In this document: piece by piece, positions 12,843 through 45,899 of the stretch | Layout: each line of letters begins with the position of its first letter | How positions within the stretch are numbered: position 1 is the stretch's first letter | Assembly: GCA_964522435.1 (NCBI GenBank) | Contig: CAZFUL010000002.1 | Location: forward strand, 108,631 to 172,630 | DNA: 64,000 nucleotides | Source: an uncultured Gammaproteobacteria bacterium | GTDB taxonomy: Bacteria; Patescibacteriota; Patescibacteriia; Magasanikbacterales; UBA922 | Reading direction: 5' to 3' | Position numbers and translations under genes: made by a program | Notes under the pieces: model-generated | Seen by the model: only the letters and a program-made list of their open reading frames with translations | What the model was told of the DNA's origin: nothing | Databases searched by the model: none

Positions 12843-15437
12843 TTAAGGCTGCAGGTGCAGCCCGCATCCCTCATGATCGTATGCGGACGGGGGGGATGCC
12901 GGGTTGAGGATATCTCGACCCCGGATCAGGTTGCCGCCGGAGTCGTAGTCGAACTCCTGCAGCAGGGTCACCTGACCGTTCCCATTCCGGATACGCAGGG
13001 TGGTGGGCAAGCGGTCGTTCACGTTGACATACGTGAACGTCCACTCAAATTCGGTCCGGCCCAGGTTGTCCTGGACCAGGATGCGGCGGAGGAGATTGGG
13101 GTTGCCCCCGTACTCCCACACCCAGGGGTTCGTGGGAACCCCTTCGCACTCGGTGTTGGCGTACTGGTTCCCACGGGTGGGTCGACCAGCGCCATCAAAG
13201 TTCGTGACCAGCACACAGGTGCCGGCCACAAAGTCGATACGGCGGCTCCAGTAGGTGCCGCCCTGCCCATCACTGACGGGCAGGAATTCTGCGACCACCT
13301 GGCCATTGACCAGGCTCCGACAGGCCATTGCCGGGGCGCGCACCGTCGATGCGGCACAGCCTTGGCACAGGCCCTCGCCGTTTTCGCCGCAGGCACCGCT
13401 GCCCGGCACCCCCAGGGCGCATTGGCCTTGGGGGGGCTGGCAGGGAGCGCCGACGTTGAAGTCTTCGTCGACGGTGCCGTCGCAGTCTTCGTCTTCGGCG
13501 TTGCAGAGCTCGGCCGGAGCCGGGCCGCATTCGCCGCAGGCGTTGACCAGGTTTTCGTCGACGGTGCCGTCGCAGTTGTCGTCGATGTTGTTGCACTGAG
13601 CCCCTTCGGGGCGGGGAGTCACCCCACCCACACAGGCGGCCCAGGCGCCGTTGACGCAGGTCTGCGTGCCTTCGCGGCACGCGCCAACATTGCTCCCGCA
13701 GTTGCGGGTGGTGTCGTTGGCGCAGGCACAGCCCTCATTGGCTGTGCCATCGCAGTCTTCGTCGAGACCTGCTTGGTCGCAGACCTCTTGGGGCACGGGG
13801 CCACAGGCGCCACAGGCGTTGAACACACCTTCGTCGATGTTGCCATTGCAGTTGTTGTCGATCCCGTCGCAGATTTCCGGCTGGGCAGGACCCGGCTGGC
13901 AATCTGCGACGAGTTGACCGTTTTGGCACACCATCTGACCAGCGCTCTCACACGCGCCGGTGCCGCACATCGTGGGACTTGCGGCGATCCCTTCGTCACT
14001 GCGGCCATCGCAGTCGTCATCTTCGTTGTTGCAGATCTCGGGGATGGGTTGCCCCGCACCCGAGCAGGCACCAAAGGTGCCATCCTCGAGACAGACCTGC
14101 ACCCCGGGGGTGCAGCGGCCGACATTCTCGCCGCAGGGGCGGCTTTCATCGGGGGTGCAGCCGCAGACCCCGTCGTCCACGCTGCCGTCACAGTCGTTGT
14201 CAAGGTCGTCGCAGACTTCCTCACCGGGGGCCCCGGCTTGGCAGGCTGCTTCGTAGGCGCCGTTGATACAGCGCCGGTTGACCTCACGTCGGCACTCGCC
14301 GACGCCACAGCTCTCCGGAATGGGAGCTGCGTTTTCGTCGCTGCGGCCATCGCAGTCGTCATCGATGTTGTTGCAGGTCGCATCAGCCGCGGCCGGTTGC
14401 CCAGCCTGGGCATTGCAGACCACGCCGTTGCCGCGGGGATCGCAGACGTTGATCCCGTTGGAGCGACAGGCGCCGACGCCGGCGTTGCAGGCCTGCCCCA
14501 GAGTGGGGAAGCTCTCGTCGATCGTGCCGTCGCAGTCATCATCCAGGCCATTGCAGGTTTCAGCCTGAACGCCCGGACTGACATTGGCGGTGCATTGCTC
14601 GCAGCCGGTCAAAACACCGGCGGCGCATATGCCAGGCAGGCTGCTGTCGCAGCCCGCCTCACCTTGGCCGGGGAACGACTCATCGCTGCGGCCGTCGCAG
14701 TCGTCGTCGAGGCTGTTGCAGGTCTCCTCCCCAGGCATGCCCGGGGTGCAGGAGCGGTTGGTGAAGCCACCTTCGCAGGTGACCGTCCCTTCCGCCCTGC
14801 AGATGCCTTCGCCGCAGAGGATTTCCTCCGGGACGAATTCATCAGGATCGCATTCGCAGTTCTCGTCGACGTCGCCGTCGCAGTCGTTGTCGCGCTCGTC
14901 GCAACCGTCGTCTTCCGACTCCGGCTCGCCAGGCGTACACTCGGGTACGCGCTGCCCATTCAGGCAGACTTGCCGTCCGTTGCGCTGGCAAACGCCTACC
15001 CCGCAGTTGCCTGCAGGAAATGGCTCAAGGTCTTCGTCGACGTTGCCATCGCAGTCGTTGTCTGCGTCATCGCAGCGCTCCGGAGCAGGTCGCTCGACCT
15101 GCTCACACACGAAGGCTCCATCCGCCAGGCAGCGGATGAGGCCAACGTGGCAGACCCCCAAGTTGGGGGTGGTGCAGGGCGCGTCGTGGACACAGGCGGG
15201 CGGCCCTTGGTCAGGGCTGCCATCGGGGCGCGGGGTCTCTGCGTCGGTTTGCGGCTCGCCCAGGTCGGGCGCCGCCCCGTCTTCTTCTACGCCGCTGTCG
15301 GAAGGAGGGGTGATCTGGGCGTCAGCAACGACGCCCGTGTCAGACCCGCCCTGAGGCGGGTCAGGAAAGTCTCCGGGGCAGCCCGTGAGGCTGCCGAGAA
15401 GCAGGGCCCAAAACAGGGCCGTCATGAGGTTCTTCAT
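12843..15437 (-). CDS. GC-rich secreted lipoprotein with about 11 DDDCDG-type cysteine-rich repeats, ending in a YD-repeat start (apparently truncated)
   Basis: ATG start with a signal peptide plus lipobox 'LLGSLTGC'. Repeats run 'CNxxDDDCDGxxDE'. The C-terminus reads '...TLLQEFDYDSGGNLIRG...' and stops exactly at the GC-content boundary. The opposite-strand 918-aa ORF is a GC shadow. Confidence 0.7.
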   Translation of the reverse strand: MKNLMTALFWALLLGSLTGCPGDFPDPPQGGSDTGVVADAQITPPSDSGVEEDGAAPDLGEPQTDAETPRPDGSPDQGPPACVHDAPCTTPNLGVCHVGLIRCLADGAFVCEQVERPAPERCDDADNDCDGNVDEDLEPFPAGNCGVGVCQRNGRQVCLNGQRVPECTPGEPESEDDGCDERDNDCDGDVDENCECDPDEFVPEEILCGEGICRAEGTVTCEGGFTNRSCTPGMPGEETCNSLDDDCDGRSDESFPGQGEAGCDSSLPGICAAGVLTGCEQCTANVSPGVQAETCNGLDDDCDGTIDESFPTLGQACNAGVGACRSNGINVCDPRGNGVVCNAQAGQPAAADATCNNIDDDCDGRSDENAAPIPESCGVGECRREVNRRCINGAYEAACQAGAPGEEVCDDLDNDCDGSVDDGVCGCTPDESRPCGENVGRCTPGVQVCLEDGTFGACSGAGQPIPEICNNEDDDCDGRSDEGIAASPTMCGTGACESAGQMVCQNGQLVADCQPGPAQPEICDGIDNNCNGNIDEGVFNACGACGPVPQEVCDQAGLDEDCDGTANEGCACANDTTRNCGSNVGACREGTQTCVNGAWAACVGGVTPRPEGAQCNNIDDNCDGTVDENLVNACGECGPAPAELCNAEDEDCDGTVDEDFNVGAPCQPPQGQCALGVPGSGACGENGEGLCQGCAASTVRAPAMACRSLVNGQVVAEFLPVSDGQGGTYWSRRIDFVAGTCVLVTNFDGAGRPTRGNQYANTECEGVPTNPWVWEYGGNPNLLRRILVQDNLGRTEFEWTFTYVNVNDRLPTTLRIRNGNGQVTLLQEFDYDSGGNLIRGRDILNPASPPSAYDHEGCGLHLQP

Positions 15438-20860: not shown

Positions 20861-21775
20861 TTACTTCTTCACGGCGAGGAAGTAGGTGTTGGAGTCCCAC
20901 TTCTCGGGCTCTTTCTCCGAGAATGAGAAGCTCCGCCATTCGTCAAGGCTCAGGGAAGCGAAGTAGATTGTTTCGCGTCCACTGTATGTTTTAATGGCGT
21001 AGTGCCAGCCAATGGTCACGATCGGACCTTTGGCAAACATCCCTTTGCTTGCCTCGGCAAAGGAGAGAATTTCTCCCAGTAGGGCCGGTTGCAGGCCTCG
21101 CTTGGCCAATTCGTAGGACACTCCTTCGCTCGTCATCGGTTGATCGAATTTGATGATTTGGAAGGTTACATTACGGTAACCGTCGATCATCGGGAATTGG
21201 ATCTCGTCGACGGTGCCCCGTACACCCCAGGGGAACACCGTAACGTTGTCGAGTTCGGCCAGCGCGAGCATTTCCCGCAAGGTCAATCCCAGGTCAAACT
21301 TTACGTCGAAGGTATCTCCGGGCTTGATCTCGCGATAGCCTGCAGGCATGAAGCGCCAGGGATCGAAGGAGATACGCGAACCCTGGGAACATCCCAGGGT
21401 GACCTGCCAGCGGTTGATGGGGTCAGCCTTTCGTGAAAGCAGCATGTAGCTGCATTTGCACTTGCAGCGCATGGGAGTGTTGTCGTCCTCGACGTCAGTC
21501 AGGGTGCGGAGCTCCCAATCCCCGCCGCCGTTGGCGTTGAAGTGGCGCGCGATGGCCTGAAGGCGCAGGTTTTCATCTTGATCCGGCTCCGTCGCGGCGT
21601 TGGCCGCGTTCACTCGCTGCTTCACTTCTTCGGGCAGCGCGTCGAACATCTGCGCACGCCAGGAGCGTTGCGTGTCGGCCTGGCTTTCGTGCCAGGGCTT
21701 GATCGTGGGGCGGGCTGCTGTGCAGGCCGCCAAAAACCAGCTGATGATCAGCAGAGAAAGGTTTTTGAATTTCAT
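20861..21775 (-). CDS. GC-rich lipoprotein of unknown function
   Basis: ATG start, signal peptide and lipobox 'FLAACT'. 304 aa with much higher GC than its neighbours. It lies between two tRNA genes. Confidence 0.6.
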   Translation of the reverse strand: MKFKNLSLLIISWFLAACTAARPTIKPWHESQADTQRSWRAQMFDALPEEVKQRVNAANAATEPDQDENLRLQAIARHFNANGGGDWELRTLTDVEDDNTPMRCKCKCSYMLLSRKADPINRWQVTLGCSQGSRISFDPWRFMPAGYREIKPGDTFDVKFDLGLTLREMLALAELDNVTVFPWGVRGTVDEIQFPMIDGYRNVTFQIIKFDQPMTSEGVSYELAKRGLQPALLGEILSFAEASKGMFAKGPIVTIGWHYAIKTYSGRETIYFASLSLDEWRSFSFSEKEPEKWDSNTYFLAVKK

Positions 21776-22589: not shown

Positions 22590-23573
22590 ATGAAGAAGAT
22601 TCTTTTGTTGTTGCTCCTCGCTGGGTTGGGCGTCCTCGTATGGAAAAACCATACCCCCAAGAACACGTTGGGAGGGGACGCGCCGCCGGTAGTGACGGTC
22701 GCACAGAAGATGACTGAGCTGCTCACTGCCTACGAGGCGCTCCATCCCCAGCCGGATCATTTCTGGTTGACGGGTGGAGATCAGCTGATGTTGATCGGTG
22801 CTCCCGCGTACAACAAGCTCCTCCAGACTTGGAAGGCGGACGCCATCGCGGGTTTGCGTCGCAACATGGAGGCGCACCCGCTCATGCACGACCTCATGAG
22901 CGAGTTTCCTGACTTCCGGATCACTGAGGTGGTTCGGCAGGGAAATAGCTACGGGTCCCGGGCGGTGTTCCCTGGAAAGATTGAGGGGAATATCGAACAG
23001 TTCATGCAAGAGCAAGGGAAGTTCCTCGAAGTCGCCCTCATCCCAGAGCAAAACTGGGATCACTCGGCGTTTCCCTCTTGCTTGTACTACAACAAGGGAT
23101 GGGGAGCCGTGATGGTGGTTGGCGTGGACATCCCTGCAACGTTTGGCACGGCGCTGTTGGCTCATGAACTTGGGCATGCGTTGCGTCATCGCCAAGGTGC
23201 CGGGTCTGCAACCGCTCACCCGAGCACGGATCTCTTCATCGGCGAAGAGGTGGAGATGCATGTTCTTGAACATGAGGTGTTGAACTTCGCGGTTCAGGGC
23301 AAGTTCAATCAGCTCTTGGATCGCATCATCGCCCGCGCGGCCAACAAGCAAGACATGAACCAGGTGATCAAGTCTGTCACTGCAGAAGACCTCAAGGCCT
23401 ACGACCAGCTCTTCGGGCTTGAGTCTGCTGGCAAAGAGATTGCCTCACTTGCCCTTGGGCAGTTCCTGTTGTCCTTGGGCTTCCGCATGATTGACGGCTA
23501 CATCACAGAGCCGCAAGCCGCACATGCAGAGAAGATTCGCTTCTATCGTTGGATCAGCAATCCGGCGAAGTAG
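22590..23573 (+). CDS. GC-rich exported protein with HExxH zinc-metallopeptidase-like motif
   Basis: Start at 'MKKILLLLLLAGLGVLVW' (signal peptide or anchor). It carries 'ALLAHELGHALRH'. The high-GC antisense ORF 22488..23351 is a shadow. Confidence 0.45.
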   Translation: MKKILLLLLLAGLGVLVWKNHTPKNTLGGDAPPVVTVAQKMTELLTAYEALHPQPDHFWLTGGDQLMLIGAPAYNKLLQTWKADAIAGLRRNMEAHPLMHDLMSEFPDFRITEVVRQGNSYGSRAVFPGKIEGNIEQFMQEQGKFLEVALIPEQNWDHSAFPSCLYYNKGWGAVMVVGVDIPATFGTALLAHELGHALRHRQGAGSATAHPSTDLFIGEEVEMHVLEHEVLNFAVQGKFNQLLDRIIARAANKQDMNQVIKSVTAEDLKAYDQLFGLESAGKEIASLALGQFLLSLGFRMIDGYITEPQAAHAEKIRFYRWISNPAK

Positions 23574-38512: not shown

Positions 38513-38622
38513 ACAATGAACAATGAGCAATGAACAATTAACAGGTATCTATAAATAATAAAACCCTCTAACGAGGGGGATAAATTTGTTAATTGCTAAT
38601 TGTTAAATGTTCATTGTTATTG
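38513..38622. repeat. CAATGA(G/A)CAAT-type imperfect palindromic intergenic element (copy 1)
   Basis: Left arm 'caatgaacaatgagcaatgaacaattaaca' and an inverted right arm 'tgttaattgctaattgttaaatgttcattgttattg' flank a small 'ccctc-taac-gaggg' hairpin. Confidence 0.55.
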
Positions 38623-39067
38623 TGAAGGTCGGCCAACCCACTATGTGTGGGTTGGCCGTACCTATTGCTCCTTGTCAGTCCTCCACCTGATACTGGCTCG
38701 GGGGGTTGGTGCGCACCTCAACTGATGCGGCAATCGACGCGTCTTGCGACGCTTTGATCCGTTGCCGTTCAGTGGGCTTTCCTCGTTGGCTGCTCCAATG
38801 GTACAAAAAGGCCAACACTGCCAATACGAGACACAAAGCACCAAAAGATTCCACGGCGGCTTCCTTACCTGTCCTCTGTCAGGGGTAATACGCATCAAGG
38901 CCAACTCCCTTTGGCCAGGGCATAAAAAAAGAGGACAACCGAGGCTAGCAGGTTTGCTGGATTTTGTCAATACGGAAGGGCAGACAGCTTTTTTGTTCCT
39001 GTATGCCTCAATCGAATGAATCCGTTTTGGCCTTTTCTTATCGCATGGTTTCTGCTATACTCGCTCT

Positions 39068-39775
39068 ATGAATACTATGGCAGAATCACTGTTGGGTACC
39101 CTCTTTGTGGTGGCTACCCCGATTGGCAATTTATCTGATATGACCCCGCGCGCGATTCATATACTCCGCTCGGTTTCTTTTATTTTATGTGAAGATACTC
39201 GCGTTACCAAAAAATTACTCCATCATTTTTCTATCGATACTCCCGTCATGACCTATCATCATCATTCTGACGAAAAAACCATGAAAGAGGTCGTACATAA
39301 ATTACAACAAGGGCTTTCTCTTGCTTTAGTTTCTGATGCTGGAACACCAGCTATTTCTGACCCGGGTGGATTATTGGTTGAATATCTTCAACGAAATGAA
39401 CCTACTATCCGGATAGAAGCCATTGCTGGGGTATCTGCTGTGACAGCTGCGCTGTCTATTTCTGGATTTGCAGCGGAACGCTTTGTCTTTTTAGGCTTCC
39501 CACCACACAAACAAAAACGGAAGCAATTTTTTGAAGAAGTCGCACAGAGTCCCTATACCGTGGTGTTTTATGAATCACCCTATCGTATAAAAAAGGCAAT
39601 CGACCAATTGACGGCTTTGTGTGCGCCCAATCGTCATATCACTATCTGTCGAGAATTGACCAAAAAATTTGAAAGCAGATATAGTGGCACGATAGAAGAA
39701 ATACAACAGATGACGATTCCTGAAAAAGGCGAGTTTGTGGTTGTTGTTGAAGGAAATAAGAATAAACCAGCATAA
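39068..39775 (+). CDS. rsmI: 16S rRNA (cytidine1402-2'-O)-methyltransferase
   Basis: 'LFVVATPIGNLSDMTPRAIHILRSVSFILCEDTRVTKKLL'. 235 aa. Confidence 0.85.
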   Translation: MNTMAESLLGTLFVVATPIGNLSDMTPRAIHILRSVSFILCEDTRVTKKLLHHFSIDTPVMTYHHHSDEKTMKEVVHKLQQGLSLALVSDAGTPAISDPGGLLVEYLQRNEPTIRIEAIAGVSAVTAALSISGFAAERFVFLGFPPHKQKRKQFFEEVAQSPYTVVFYESPYRIKKAIDQLTALCAPNRHITICRELTKKFESRYSGTIEEIQQMTIPEKGEFVVVVEGNKNKPA

Positions 39776-42799: not shown

Positions 42800-43807
42800 A
42801 TGATGATTAAAAAAGTAGCGATTGATTTAGGAACAACCAATGTGCTGGTGCATGTACCAAAGCGCGGTATTGTGATTAACGAACCCTCTGTCGTTGCCGT
42901 ATCAAAAGAAGATAACCGTGTATTGGCGGTAGGGATTGAAGCAAAAGAAATGATTGGACGTACTCCCGACAGTATTGTGGCAGAACGACCACTCAAAGAC
43001 GGCGTGATTGCCAATTATCGGACAACAGAAGCCATGCTTCGCTATTTTATTAATAAAGCCATTGGGGGAGTACGCTTATTTCGGCCAGAAGTTATGGTAG
43101 CGGTTCCGGCTGGGATTACCTCAACAGAACGTCGTGCTGTAATTGATGCGACCATGGCAGCAGGGGCACGCGCTGCCTACATTATTAAAGAACCAATCGT
43201 TGCGGCGATTGGCGCAGACATTCCTATTGGTAGTGCCTCTGGGCATATGATTATTGATATTGGCGGAGGAACCAGTGAAATTGCGGTCATTTCTTTGGGC
43301 GGTATTGTTTCCTGTGGATCCGTGCGTATTGGCGGAACCCGCTTTGATGCCTCTATTGCCGAACATATTCGCCGCAAATACGGTTTGGCTATTGGAGATA
43401 GATCTTCTGAAGAAGTAAAAATTCGCGTAGGCTCTGCCATGTTTATGGATAAACCATTAGTTATGGATGTGAAGGGACGAGATATGATTAGCGGCTTGCC
43501 ACGTACTATTCCTGTTACTTCTGATGATACGACCGAAGCCTTACAACATGATTTAGAAGGCTTAATTGATGCCGTGAAACAAGTACTGCATGATACCCCA
43601 CCAGAATTATCCGCTGACGTGATGAACAAAGGCATTATTATGTCTGGCGGATCCAGTCAATTACGGAATTTAGATGAATTAATTGCGCAAGCAACAGGTG
43701 TTGCCTGTTATGTGGCAGACGAACCATTATTATGTGTTGCCAAAGGAACGGGTATTGCCTTAGAAAATTTGGAAAATTACAAACGATCGATTATGGCGAC
43801 ACGATAG
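42800..43807 (+). CDS. mreB: rod-shape-determining protein MreB
   Basis: 'VAIDLGTTNVLVHV', 'IDIGGGTSEIAVIS' and 'GIIMSGGSSQL' actin-fold motifs. Confidence 0.9.
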   Translation: MMIKKVAIDLGTTNVLVHVPKRGIVINEPSVVAVSKEDNRVLAVGIEAKEMIGRTPDSIVAERPLKDGVIANYRTTEAMLRYFINKAIGGVRLFRPEVMVAVPAGITSTERRAVIDATMAAGARAAYIIKEPIVAAIGADIPIGSASGHMIIDIGGGTSEIAVISLGGIVSCGSVRIGGTRFDASIAEHIRRKYGLAIGDRSSEEVKIRVGSAMFMDKPLVMDVKGRDMISGLPRTIPVTSDDTTEALQHDLEGLIDAVKQVLHDTPPELSADVMNKGIIMSGGSSQLRNLDELIAQATGVACYVADEPLLCVAKGTGIALENLENYKRSIMATR

Positions 43808-43837
43808 TTTGCTGAGTTGTCTAAATTTTTTTACCCC

Positions 43838-43947
43838 GTCACCCCGAGCGAAGCCCATAGGGCGTAGTCGAGGGGGTAAGGATCTTTATATCATCGGTGC
43901 TAATATCCTAAACTCCTCGACTCACTTCGTTCGCTCGGAGTGAAAGG
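43838..43947. repeat. 110-bp long-armed imperfect inverted repeat (about 45-nt arms)
   Basis: The left arm is 'ccccgtcaccccgagcgaagcccatagggcgtagtcgagggggtaaggat'. Its reverse complement closely matches the right arm 'atcctaaactcctcgactcacttcgttcgctcggagtgaaagg'. Confidence 0.6.
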
Positions 43948-43978
43948 ATACTAAATGTAGAAAATTATTTTAAAAAAT

Positions 43979-44012
43979 AACCCTGCAATATTGTATTACA
44001 GGGTTATTTCTT
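43979..44012. terminator. rho-independent terminator (hairpin aaccctg...cagggtt plus T-rich tail)
   Basis: Perfect 7-bp stem followed by 'atttctttcctcctttcttttttct'. Confidence 0.55.
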
Positions 44013-44054
44013 TCCTCCTTTCTTTTTTCTCCTTGGTTTGGGGTGATTGTCGCG

Positions 44055-44222
44055 TCAGCTCTTGGGCTGGGCGGGAATACGGCGAAGCACCTCGAGCGTT
44101 TCTCGATGGAGCTTGCACAGGAGAGCAATCTGCTGTGCGTTCAACGTTCCGGTCCCGCCATAGACCCGTTCGTACAGATCAGGGTCAAGGCAGCAGGGGC
44201 ATTTCTTATACAGAAGTGGCAT
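44055..44222 (-). CDS. small GC-rich Cys/His protein, paralog 3 (CPCC...LCKLH)
   Basis: 'MPLLYKKCPCCLDPDLYERVYGGTGTLNAQQIALLCKLH'. It shares the motif C-x(1-2)-C ... Q-Q-I-A-x-L-C-x2-H with the gene upstream. Confidence 0.35.
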   Translation of the reverse strand: MPLLYKKCPCCLDPDLYERVYGGTGTLNAQQIALLCKLHRETLEVLRRIPAQPKS

Positions 44223-44236
44223 CGTTCTTCTCCTTG

Positions 44237-44419
44237 TTAGCGGCGCTGGGCGCTGCTGGGTTTGGGATTTTCTTGCTCTGCTTGCCACGCTGCCTTATGC
44301 TGTGAGCACAGGTCAGCGATCTGTTGCTTGTCCAGATTCAAAAAGGGCGAGCGTCCGGTGTTGTTCCGTGGATAGCTGCACAAATGGCAGTGCCGGTTGA
44401 ACTTAAAGAACGCAGGCAT
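44237..44419 (-). CDS. small GC-rich Cys/His protein, paralog 2 (CHLC...LCSQH)
   Basis: 'MPAFFKFNRHCHLCSYPRNNTGRSPFLNLDKQQIADLCSQH'. Confidence 0.35.
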   Translation of the reverse strand: MPAFFKFNRHCHLCSYPRNNTGRSPFLNLDKQQIADLCSQHKAAWQAEQENPKPSSAQRR

Positions 44420-44435
44420 GGTTTTTCTCCCTTCC

Positions 44436-44669
44436 TCAGTGATTGTCGCCATAGTCGTTGAACTGCTTCGTCAACGCATCGAAGATCACCTGGGCTTCCT
44501 TGTAGTTCATTTCTCGTCGGCGGCTCACCATACGAACATGCGGTTCGCACAGGTGGTGGGGTTCTTTCTCCACGACATGCGCTCCGAGCTCGAAGAGCTT
44601 AAGCAACATCGGTTTGCTGGTGCAGAGCACACAGGCCGAATCGTGGGGAATTGGCTCGATTTCTACCAT
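44436..44669 (-). CDS. small GC-rich Cys/His protein, paralog 1 (CVLC...HHLCEPH)
   Basis: 'MVEIEPIPHDSACVLCTSKPMLLKLFELGAHVVEKEPHHLCEPH'. First of three same-strand tandem genes. Confidence 0.3.
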   Translation of the reverse strand: MVEIEPIPHDSACVLCTSKPMLLKLFELGAHVVEKEPHHLCEPHVRMVSRRREMNYKEAQVIFDALTKQFNDYGDNH

Positions 44670-44807
44670 CCTCGTTCTCCTTTGACCTGAGGGTGTTTCA
44701 TAGGAAGCCATATTTTTTTCTTTTTGTCAATGCCCAAGGCAAGGAGCTTGTATTTTTATGCTCATCCCGTATACTAGGGGTCAAGACAACCTTGTGTAAC
44801 GCAGTAT

Positions 44808-45899
44808 ATGATCATCGGCATTGACGCTTCTCGAGCAAACAAACACCAAAAAACCGGCGTAGAATGGTATGCCTTTTTTGTGATTGAAGAAATGAAACAA
44901 TTACTTACAGATAGGGTGTCTGTCGTCCTCTATTCGGATACTCCCTTGCAAGGGGAGTTGGCAAATCTTCCTCCTGGCTGGTCATCAAAAGTATTGCCTT
45001 GGCCACCCAAACGTTTTTGGACACAAGTTCGGTTGAGTATTGAAATGCTTTTCCACGGACCAGATGTATTATTTGTTCCTGCGCATGTCGCACCCCTGAT
45101 TCATCCCAAAAAAACAGTGGTAACCATTCATGATATTGCGCCGTGGCGCTTTCCAAAAAGCTATTCTTGGTTTGAACGTTGGTATTGTTTATGGAGTACC
45201 CGCTATGCCGCAAAACGGGTATCACATATTATTGTCCCGAGTGAATTTACGAAACAAGAGATACATGATTATATAAAAAAAATCACGGCACATATCCACG
45301 TCATTCATCATGGGATAGATACGCGCTTTATAACAGCAGATCCTGGTAGCTCTCTTTCTAAAGATATACGAAAGCCCTACATACTGTCTGTTGGCCGTAT
45401 TGAAGAAAAAAAGAATACCCGTCGACTCATTGAGGCATTTACGCTTCTTCGATCGCAGTCCGCGACTGCCTATCAACTCGTGTTAATTGGTAAACCAGGT
45501 TTTGGCTATGACGCTGTGCGTGCAGCATACAACGCCAGTCCATATAAAGAGGATATTCTTTTTTTGGGATGGACAGAGCAAGAGCAATTACCTACCTTGT
45601 ATAAAGAAGCAAGCCTGTTTGCTTTCCCGAGTTTGTATGAAGGGTTTGGTATTCCCGTAGTAGAGGCCTTTGCTGCAGGTGTTCCGGTCTTGACGGCACA
45701 AGGCAGTTGTTTGTCAGAAATTGCAGCAGATGCGGCCTTGTTTGTTGATCCCTTATCCGCAGCAAGCATCCATGTGGGGCTTGAAACAGTACTCAATGAT
45801 GAATCGCTTCGTAAAGAGTTGATTGAAAAAGGAAAAAAACGAGCACGAACTTTTTCTTGGGAAAAAACCGCAAAAGAAACAACACATATTCTTATATGA
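44808..45899 (+). CDS. glycosyltransferase family 4/1 (GT-B)
   Basis: 'FAFPSLYEGFGIPVVEAFAAGVPVLT'. Confidence 0.8.
   Translation: MIIGIDASRANKHQKTGVEWYAFFVIEEMKQLLTDRVSVVLYSDTPLQGELANLPPGWSSKVLPWPPKRFWTQVRLSIEMLFHGPDVLFVPAHVAPLIHPKKTVVTIHDIAPWRFPKSYSWFERWYCLWSTRYAAKRVSHIIVPSEFTKQEIHDYIKKITAHIHVIHHGIDTRFITADPGSSLSKDIRKPYILSVGRIEEKKNTRRLIEAFTLLRSQSATAYQLVLIGKPGFGYDAVRAAYNASPYKEDILFLGWTEQEQLPTLYKEASLFAFPSLYEGFGIPVVEAFAAGVPVLTAQGSCLSEIAADAALFVDPLSAASIHVGLETVLNDESLRKELIEKGKKRARTFSWEKTAKETTHILI

Follow-up and report, generated by a model that had tools for sequence, protein, structure and literature searches.

Three tandem reading frames with a common Cys/His motif in a compositionally deviant islet between mreB and a glycosyltransferase gene of a Patescibacteria genome

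We analysed a stretch of 64,000 nt (hereafter the window) from contig CAZFUL010000002.1 of assembly GCA_964522435.1, a Patescibacteria genome, and within it a GC-rich islet lying between mreB (42800-43807) and the gene of a GT4 glycosyltransferase (44808-45899). The spacer between these two genes is exactly 1,000 bp long. One neighbour encodes MreB (PF06723, E=7e-128), and the product of the other is recognised as a GT4 glycosyltransferase by Pfam PF00534 and PF13439. An initial annotation, made from the letters of the sequence, had placed a GC-rich islet with three same-strand open reading frames (ORFs) of 55-77 aa at 43990-44720, and both the islet and the ORFs are borne out. In 300-nt windows the core of the islet reaches 0.52-0.56 GC, against a mean of 0.416 (41.6%) for the window, and the minus strand of 44055-44711 is filled by three back-to-back ORFs, here A, B and C, all inside the annotated interval.

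Reading frames of the islet and their coding status

The ATG of each of the three ORFs follows a Shine-Dalgarno (SD) site at a distance of 7 nt, and a repeat finder recovered this SD and ATG unit independently as a three-copy family. The ORFs and their signals are as follows.

44436-44669, minus strand: ORF A, 77 aa from the SD-led ATG (MVEIEP...YGDNH), stop TGA, isoelectric point (pI) 6.0
44677-44682, minus strand: SD site of ORF A, AAGGAG, 7 nt upstream of the ATG
44237-44419, minus strand: ORF B, 60 aa from the SD-led ATG (MPAFFKF...AQRR), stop TAA, pI 9.65
44427-44432, minus strand: SD site of ORF B, AGGGAG, 7 nt upstream of the ATG
44055-44222, minus strand: ORF C, 55 aa from the SD-led ATG (MPLLYKK...AQPKS), stop TGA, pI 8.8
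44230-44235, minus strand: SD site of ORF C, AAGGAG, 7 nt upstream of the ATG

The SD-led sizes of 77, 60 and 55 aa agree with those first annotated. Longer forms can be read for all three: from its SD-less first ATG at 44711, ORF A would have 91 aa (44436-44711); the open frame of B extends over 44237-44452 (71 aa), its SD-led ATG at 44419 giving the 60-aa form; and C can be extended to a GTG (44055-44288, 77 aa), its SD-led ATG at 44222 giving the 55-aa form. The intercistronic spacers are short, with 16 nt from the stop of A to B and 14 nt from the stop of B to C.

Several properties of the DNA bear on whether these frames are coding. When the islet was simulated 3000 times with a first-order Markov model, three same-strand ATG-initiated ORFs over 660 of 681 nt arose only once (p about 3e-4). 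The GC contents at codon positions 1, 2 and 3 are 0.60/0.31/0.69 in A, 0.53/0.44/0.67 in B and 0.63/0.43/0.64 in C; the third position is thus always the richest and the second the poorest, which is the pattern of coding sequence on the minus strand. A codon model built from the other three GC-rich genes in the window gave a positive score to just one of the six frames for each of A, B and C, namely the proposed one. The plus strand also holds ORFs, of 104 and 97 aa, which the initial annotation had considered as possible real genes. They start with TTG, lack an SD site and a Pfam match, score negatively in the codon model and show a flat or mirrored GC content across codon positions, and are best read as shadow ORFs. 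Folding of the whole islet as RNA gave z=-2.5 for the minus strand (20 shuffles only) and z=-1.8 for the plus strand, and no Rfam family was found in the islet at the gathering threshold or at E<=1, apart from the terminator described below. From the SD sites, the tiling, the codon-position GC, the codon model and the fold and Rfam results, we take the minus-strand ORFs to be the real reading of the islet. That A, B and C are genuine coding genes, at least in the donor of this DNA, we hold with good confidence. The initial annotation had reasoned that missing homologs, together with transcription from the plus strand only, would suggest that they are GC-shadow ORFs; homologs are indeed missing, as set out below, and the sequence-intrinsic evidence opposes the plus-strand half of that argument.

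Paralogy, Cys/His motif and searches for relatives

All three products have an N-terminal CxxC, a linker of 23-24 residues and then a CxxH, as LCxxH at or in a predicted helix. The motif reads C13-x2-C16-x24-C41-x2-H44 in A, C11-x2-C14-x23-C38-x2-H41 in B and C8-x2-C11-x24-C36-x2-H39 in C. It takes up all three Cys of A, all three of B and three of the four of C. Shuffled versions of each protein contain such a motif at a rate of about 2e-4, and a six-frame scan of the window for the motif, with a spacing of 20-28 residues uninterrupted by a stop, returned three occurrences, namely A, B and C.

B and C were said in the initial annotation to align convincingly, and this is confirmed by BLASTP (E=6e-5) and by Smith-Waterman alignment, in which the pair scores above 99.8% of shuffles (p=0.0016). 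Their identity is 30-40% (40% over the columns aligned by MAFFT) with every motif residue kept, and both follow the string MP..[FY]K..C..C...TG..L[ND].QQIA.LC..H. At the nucleotide level, identity by codon position is 0.58/0.54/0.46, lowest at position 3, and within the QQIA.LC block B and C differ by synonymous third-position changes. B and C are therefore conserved at the level of protein, and on these alignments they are true paralogs. The similarity of A to B and C is not significant by BLASTP or Smith-Waterman shuffles; as had been noted, A keeps the Cys/His spacing, C-x2-C-x24-C-x2-H.

No signal peptide or transmembrane segment is visible in the three sequences. B and C carry a Met-Pro-hydrophobic-aromatic-Lys stretch ahead of the N-terminal CxxC and end in short, basic, Pro-rich tails. 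A is near-neutral, with a predicted C-terminal helix of 35 residues. In AlphaFold2 (AF2) models the C-x2-H lies at the start (A) or within (B) the main long helix, the one point on which the models agree. In each protein this spacing of the CxxC and the second ligand pair agrees with that of the zinc-ribbon and treble-clef class, about 15-30 residues. The arrangement C-x2-C...C-x2-H is most likely a treble-clef or zinc-ribbon-like Cys3His layout, predicted from its ligand spacing to chelate one Zn2+.

The trio has no detectable relatives. A word-indexed search with A, B and C among 5.8 billion proteins gave no match. A HMMER profile built from B and C returned two matches from 1.84 billion representatives, neither genuine: both are repetitive eukaryote-like proteins whose scores add up over many weak repeats, and were rejected as spurious. 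Scans of IMG/VR and Joint Genome Institute (JGI) metagenomes with back-translated patterns found no relatives; the one match in IMG/VR to the degenerate DNA pattern for L[DN]xQQIAxLCxxH, in a giant virus, lacks an upstream CxxC and was attributed to chance. With tblastn against phages and plasmids the best E values were 0.3-10 and yielded no homolog, the best-covering match (a Salmonella plasmid, E=0.8) having an internal stop codon and no Cys/His motif. Profiles from Pfam-A, NCBIfam, PHROGs and PADLOC assigned no family to A, B or C at E<=10 beyond chance level, at which the PHROG matches stood (E 0.2-0.4). A resemblance of B to TilS/PP-loop proteins ('RPLL..sk.eI..y', E=0.026 and 0.068) covers 30 residues, lies far under the cut-offs and is lacking in C, and was discarded. 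Sequence searches of the PDB were empty, and both the islet DNA and the three proteins are absent from a set of 160 related loci (L001-L160, 1.43 Mb in total). Exact-sequence look-ups of A, B, C, MreB and GT4 had no match either, in a collection that does not contain this genome. The empty family, profile and fold searches agree with the initial view that no known family can be assigned, and they lend nothing to the candidates then proposed: Cys_rich_CPCC, zf-ribbon, Trm112-like and anti-sigma families gave no hidden Markov model match even at E<=10.

Flanking elements and origin of the islet

The composition and signals of the islet set it apart from its host. GC at third codon positions (GC3) is 0.64-0.69 in the islet ORFs and 0.32 in host genes. 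A match of at least 4 nt to the SD consensus is missing upstream of 35 of the 38 host genes in the window, whereas the matches before A, B and C are 6, 4 and 6 nt long. SD presence is a mark of foreign genes in this genome, and its GC-rich islands are mostly SD-led.

The position of the islet tells a similar story. mreB followed by the GT4 gene is a conserved pair, the two lying at most 200 bp apart in 47 of the 71 related loci that contain both (median 87 bp). The nearest public relatives reach 86-90% identity in MreB and only about 51-57% in GT4. Deviant composition and signals thus go together with absence from the orthologous site in relatives, which are the marks of an islet of horizontal origin. 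The islet is very probably foreign, as first proposed from the sequence. Searches of phage, plasmid, viral and metagenome collections found no similar DNA or protein from which a donor or mobility machinery could be named, and no integrase, transposase or convincing target duplication or direct repeat marks the islet, whose flanking short repeats are at chance level. A 14-nt inverted repeat around the operon was considered as an element boundary; by our own estimate it is at chance level for a 1.2-kb region. Published work on Patescibacteria describes both transferred genes and genomic islands, the islands being reported to account for up to 13% of the length of a genome (PMC12455944).

The elements that flank the ORFs are listed below.

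44013-44054, minus strand: 3′ untranslated tail after ORF C, with the 11-nt GCGACAATCAC repeat followed by a purine-rich SD-like tract
43972-44012, strand not applicable: hairpin terminator, 19-bp stem between an A-tract and a U-tract
44712-44807, strand not applicable: 96-nt intergenic region separating ORF A from the divergent GT4 gene, presumed promoter region
43815-43965, strand not applicable: long imperfect palindrome or hairpin between the mreB stop and the terminator, in the roughly 1 kb of extra DNA

The hairpin folds at -24.9 kcal/mol (z=-7.9), and in Rfam it finds only a sub-threshold Thr_leader-like, that is terminator-like, match. It is the intrinsic terminator of the islet operon, and in the opposite direction it probably also terminates mreB. 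Exact copies of the 11-nt repeat GCGACAATCAC, each with an SD-like purine tract after it, are found in two places: at the 3′ end of A, where A adjoins B, and beyond the stop of C. Within the tail, the tract AAGGAGAAAAAAGAAAGGAGG contains two SD-like purine blocks (AAGGAG and AGGAGG) and no start codon. The tail may be a remnant, either of a fourth cistron or of a duplication junction, and the recurrence of repeat and SD-like tract at two junctions fits growth by tandem duplication, possibly with the loss of a fourth cistron. Upstream of A, a TTGACA lies on the minus strand at about 44728-44733. The palindrome of about 150 nt comprises nested inverted repeats, I1 and I2, and, when folded together with the terminator, has z=-5.7 against shuffles. 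There is a single copy in the window and none in the relatives. It could be a relic resembling a miniature inverted-repeat transposable element (MITE), a terminator or attenuator of mreB, or a small RNA.

Across this Patescibacteria clade, insertions recur at the junction 3′ of mreB. In 22 of the 71 loci it holds unrelated inserts of 0.4-4.3 kb, among them riboflavin genes, membrane proteins and lipoproteins, some of them GC-rich. Those recorded by locus are the following.

L002, L004, L082, L084, L085, L089, L090: ribBA and ribD
L001: four-helix-bundle protein
L013, L016, L020, L022: Ada-like Zn protein with a membrane protein
L102 (0.66 vs 0.54 GC) and L012 (0.56 vs 0.47 GC): GC-rich lipoprotein

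Other genes of unusual composition are found elsewhere in the window. At 12843-15437, on the minus strand, an 864-aa lipoprotein-like protein with Cu-binding_MopE or 'CxxDDDCDGxxDE' repeats (PF11617, E=2.4e-36) is encoded in an island of 2.7 kb with 65% GC, GC3 0.77 and long shadow ORFs on the opposite strand; it is a myxobacteria-style Cys-repeat protein within a Patescibacteria genome of 42% GC. Two further GC-rich genes encode a 304-aa lipoprotein (20861-21775, minus strand, between tRNA-Met and tRNA-Glu) and a 327-aa secreted protein (22590-23573, plus strand). Both have GC3 of 0.72-0.73 and SD-like upstream motifs, and neither has a significant Pfam family. Together, these three GC-rich SD-led genes indicate that horizontal acquisition is recurrent in this genome, as published surveys of the group would lead one to expect (PMC12455944). 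A 77-aa SD-led ORF (GGAG-N9-ATG) also lies at 38665-38895 on the minus strand, in the 38523-39068 intergenic region.

Interpretation and comparison with known systems

We propose that the spacer of about 1 kb between mreB and the GT4 gene was acquired horizontally and bears a self-contained three-cistron operon on the minus strand, closed by its own terminator. The operon would encode a lineage-specific family enlarged by tandem duplication, with B and C as clear paralogs and A as a divergent member. Each small cytoplasmic protein would hold one Zn2+ through Cys3His ligands and so stabilise a domain too small to fold alone; a metal site is the usual folding means for a chain of 55-77 residues. 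The three would be translationally coupled and would jointly serve as regulators or adaptors that bind nucleic acid or protein and stem from a mobile element. Stand-alone prokaryotic and phage proteins of such layout typically bind DNA, RNA or a partner protein, and the basic nature of B and C, the near-neutral A with its long helix and the translational coupling suggest that the trio probably works jointly as small regulators or adaptors. In its entirety, as an acquired and coupled operon of three Zn(Cys3His) regulators or adaptors, this reading is put forward tentatively, with slightly more doubt than belief. Its parts differ in strength. The layout of the ORFs, the paralogy, the specificity of the motif, the foreign composition and the absence from relatives are observed, and metal binding, complex formation, a regulatory role and expression in this host are inferred. 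From the ligand pattern we lean towards metal binding, while the regulatory role, taken by itself, is possible but rather doubtful.

A number of observations weigh against this proposal. The AF2 models are of low confidence, with pLDDT values of 57.5 (B) and 65.8 (A) and helices as the only assigned elements, and Foldseek comparison of the models with the PDB and BFVD gave no match at E<=0.001; the zinc-ribbon-like character attributed to the trio in the initial annotation is thus a prediction at the level of the motif. With no homolog in any search, neither cross-species conservation nor the ratio of nonsynonymous to synonymous substitutions (dN/dS) supports selection on the proteins. A would join the family as a divergent member by its motif alone, and the regulatory role is argued from analogy. 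The minus strand ahead of A shows no full sigma-70 promoter consensus, and host genes lack SD sites, so that expression of the SD-led trio in this host may not be efficient. Among 14 predicted zinc-finger micro-proteins of Haloferax, nine bound zinc and five did not (PMC11241148). We lowered our estimate of metal binding because of these five.

The alternatives are weighed here in order of their weight, beginning with the most serious, that the islet is recently acquired foreign DNA which is inert in this host, its donor genes being intact but unexpressed, or neutral passengers awaiting decay. This is unlikely but deserves attention. The composition is unameliorated (GC3 0.67 vs 0.32), donor-type SD sites stand in a genome that does without them, no promoter consensus precedes A, and the start-less SD-like tract after C may be all that is left of a decayed fourth cistron. 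The islet is moreover found in no relative, at a junction that tolerates arbitrary inserts. Against inertness, none of the three ORFs has lost its frame, its start or its SD site, the terminator is intact as well, and Patescibacteria genomes are streamlined and tend to shed useless DNA. B and C have diverged with all motif residues kept, which argues for long purifying selection, though perhaps in the donor.

Somewhat less probable is a small conflict module of phage or plasmid origin, for example an anti-defence or anti-host protein set, a restriction-alleviation-like zinc protein or a toxin-antitoxin/addiction cassette, kept because the module protects itself or the host. Tiny, fast-evolving orphans in a tightly packed SD-led operon, on foreign DNA at an insertion hotspot, would suit such a module, and many phage early genes encode orphan zinc-binding micro-proteins. 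However, nothing in PADLOC, PHROGs, the phage and plasmid tblastn searches, the IMG/VR scans or the BFVD folds matches the trio, the islet has no integrase, att-like repeats or other mobile-element genes, and three paralogs are not the toxin and antitoxin pair of differing folds. The initial annotation had called the unit 'system-like'. This impression finds no support, for no partner enzyme, integrase, toxin or defence gene accompanies the trio and its neighbours are conserved housekeeping genes.

That the islet is not protein-coding, the ORFs being GC-driven shadows of a structured RNA or another non-coding GC-rich element, or of a coding plus strand, is very unlikely. The lack of homologs would agree with it, a GC-rich patch in an AT-rich genome is frequently an RNA gene, and both the two plus-strand ORFs and the minus-strand fold could be cited for it. 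The evidence presented above runs the other way: no Rfam family apart from the terminator and a fold of little note on the plus strand, three SD and ATG units, a tiling seldom reached by simulation, a motif confined to the frames of A, B and C, and codon-position GC and a codon model that favour the minus frames and reject the TTG-started, SD-less, Pfam-less plus ORFs.

Precursors of bacteriocins or of ribosomally synthesised and post-translationally modified peptides (RiPPs) would likewise come as tandem small Cys-bearing paralogs, here with a glycosyltransferase adjoining. This idea, already among the first candidates as a precursor peptide, is highly improbable, since no modifying enzyme, protease, transporter or immunity gene is at hand, GT4 and MreB are housekeeping neighbours kept in synteny in islet-free relatives, and it is the whole Cys/His scaffold that is conserved, not a leader with a variable core, with no leader-type cleavage motif. 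An assembly chimera, in which a foreign fragment was misjoined into a contig of a metagenome-assembled genome, is equally improbable. The metagenome-type source, the abrupt shift in composition and the lack of anything similar in relatives would allow it, but the insert is internal and is flanked on either side by host genes whose order and orientation are those expected from synteny. Chimeras normally join the ends of contigs. The window also has three other GC-rich genes led by SD sites, and GC-rich inserts occupy the same junction in L102 and L012.

Beyond these alternatives, the proposed operon could be read more boldly, as a new family of Cys3His zinc micro-proteins forming a hetero-complex that acts on a core machine of the recipient, for example RNA polymerase, the nucleoid or the MreB/cell-envelope apparatus beside which it is inserted. 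We regard this as improbable; if true, the islet would be a new mobile regulatory or anti-host module that a host-dependent Patescibacteria cell took from a GC-rich neighbour or a phage. If the trio is expressed and metal-bound, it would represent a new family of bacterial zinc micro-proteins with unusual Cys3His ligands, and would indicate that tiny, streamlined Patescibacteria genomes acquire and retain orphan micro-protein operons from GC-rich, SD-using donors. For the question of translation after transfer, the locus is a useful and clean natural case of SD-led foreign genes in an SD-poor genome. To the specialist nothing here is surprising, because orphan micro-ORFs are common in acquired DNA, and at present the islet is a well-delimited candidate for small-protein studies, one orphan operon among very many in uncultivated bacteria.

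A close parallel to the trio is found in the C(P)XCG zinc-finger micro-proteins, which form a class and not a homologous family and for which zinc binding has been shown case by case (PMC11241148). Like A, B and C, they are shorter than 80 aa, contain a single predicted metal site made of two ligand pairs about 20 residues apart and lack any further domain; a good many of them are orphans that show regulatory or stress phenotypes. In ORF C the first knuckle is even a CPxC. The class has two such knuckles (Cys4), whereas the second pair of the trio is a C-x2-H in a helix (Cys3His). CPxC is found only in C, a Gly follows the knuckle in none of the three, and all have CxxH as the second pair. The two groups share no sequence similarity, and the trio is bacterial, apparently acquired horizontally and arranged as a triplicated operon.

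Small zinc-finger regulators of phages and plasmids, such as Ogr of P2, Delta of P4 and Com of Mu, are also stand-alone proteins of 60-80 aa from mobile DNA, with a CxxC knuckle and a second pair some 16-22 residues on, and P4 Delta consists of an Ogr-like unit duplicated in tandem. They are Cys4 proteins, whereas the trio is Cys3His, lacks a phage context and has no Pfam or PHROG match at E<=10. The FmdB-type 'CxxC_CxxC_SSSS' ribbon (Zn-ribbon_8/TIGR02605) begins with MPxYxYxCxxC, and the start of B and C (Met-Pro, two hydrophobic residues, an aromatic residue and Lys, then the two Cys) resembles this N-terminus. The second knuckle of FmdB-type ribbons is a CPxCG, unlike the helical LCxxH of the trio, and no Pfam or NCBIfam match was obtained at E<=10.

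The order and types of ligand in the trio, C-x2-C...C-x2-H, recur in the THAP domain, the 'large C2CH module' of eukaryotic DNA-binding factors (PMC2879526). The trio departs from it in having a spacing of 23-24 residues in proteins of 55-77 aa, and in lacking a Pfam match. In THAP domains the two pairs are tens of residues further apart, and the domain is not known in bacteria. ZAS anti-sigma factors carry H-x3-C-x2-C with a Cys or His upstream, beside the gene of an extracytoplasmic function (ECF) sigma factor. The trio has the reverse motif order (CxxC...CxxH) and no zf-HC2 match, and it adjoins no sigma factor gene, its neighbours being MreB and GT4. At the level of the DNA, the islet resembles the islands described in Patescibacteria (PMC12455944) as deviant DNA inserted in a streamlined Candidate Phyla Radiation (CPR) genome, and differs from them in being very small (about 1 kb), without mobility genes, and in carrying orphan micro-proteins alone. 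On its sequence features, the trio is best described as a putative new sequence family, a Cys3His form of the one-domain zinc-finger micro-proteins.

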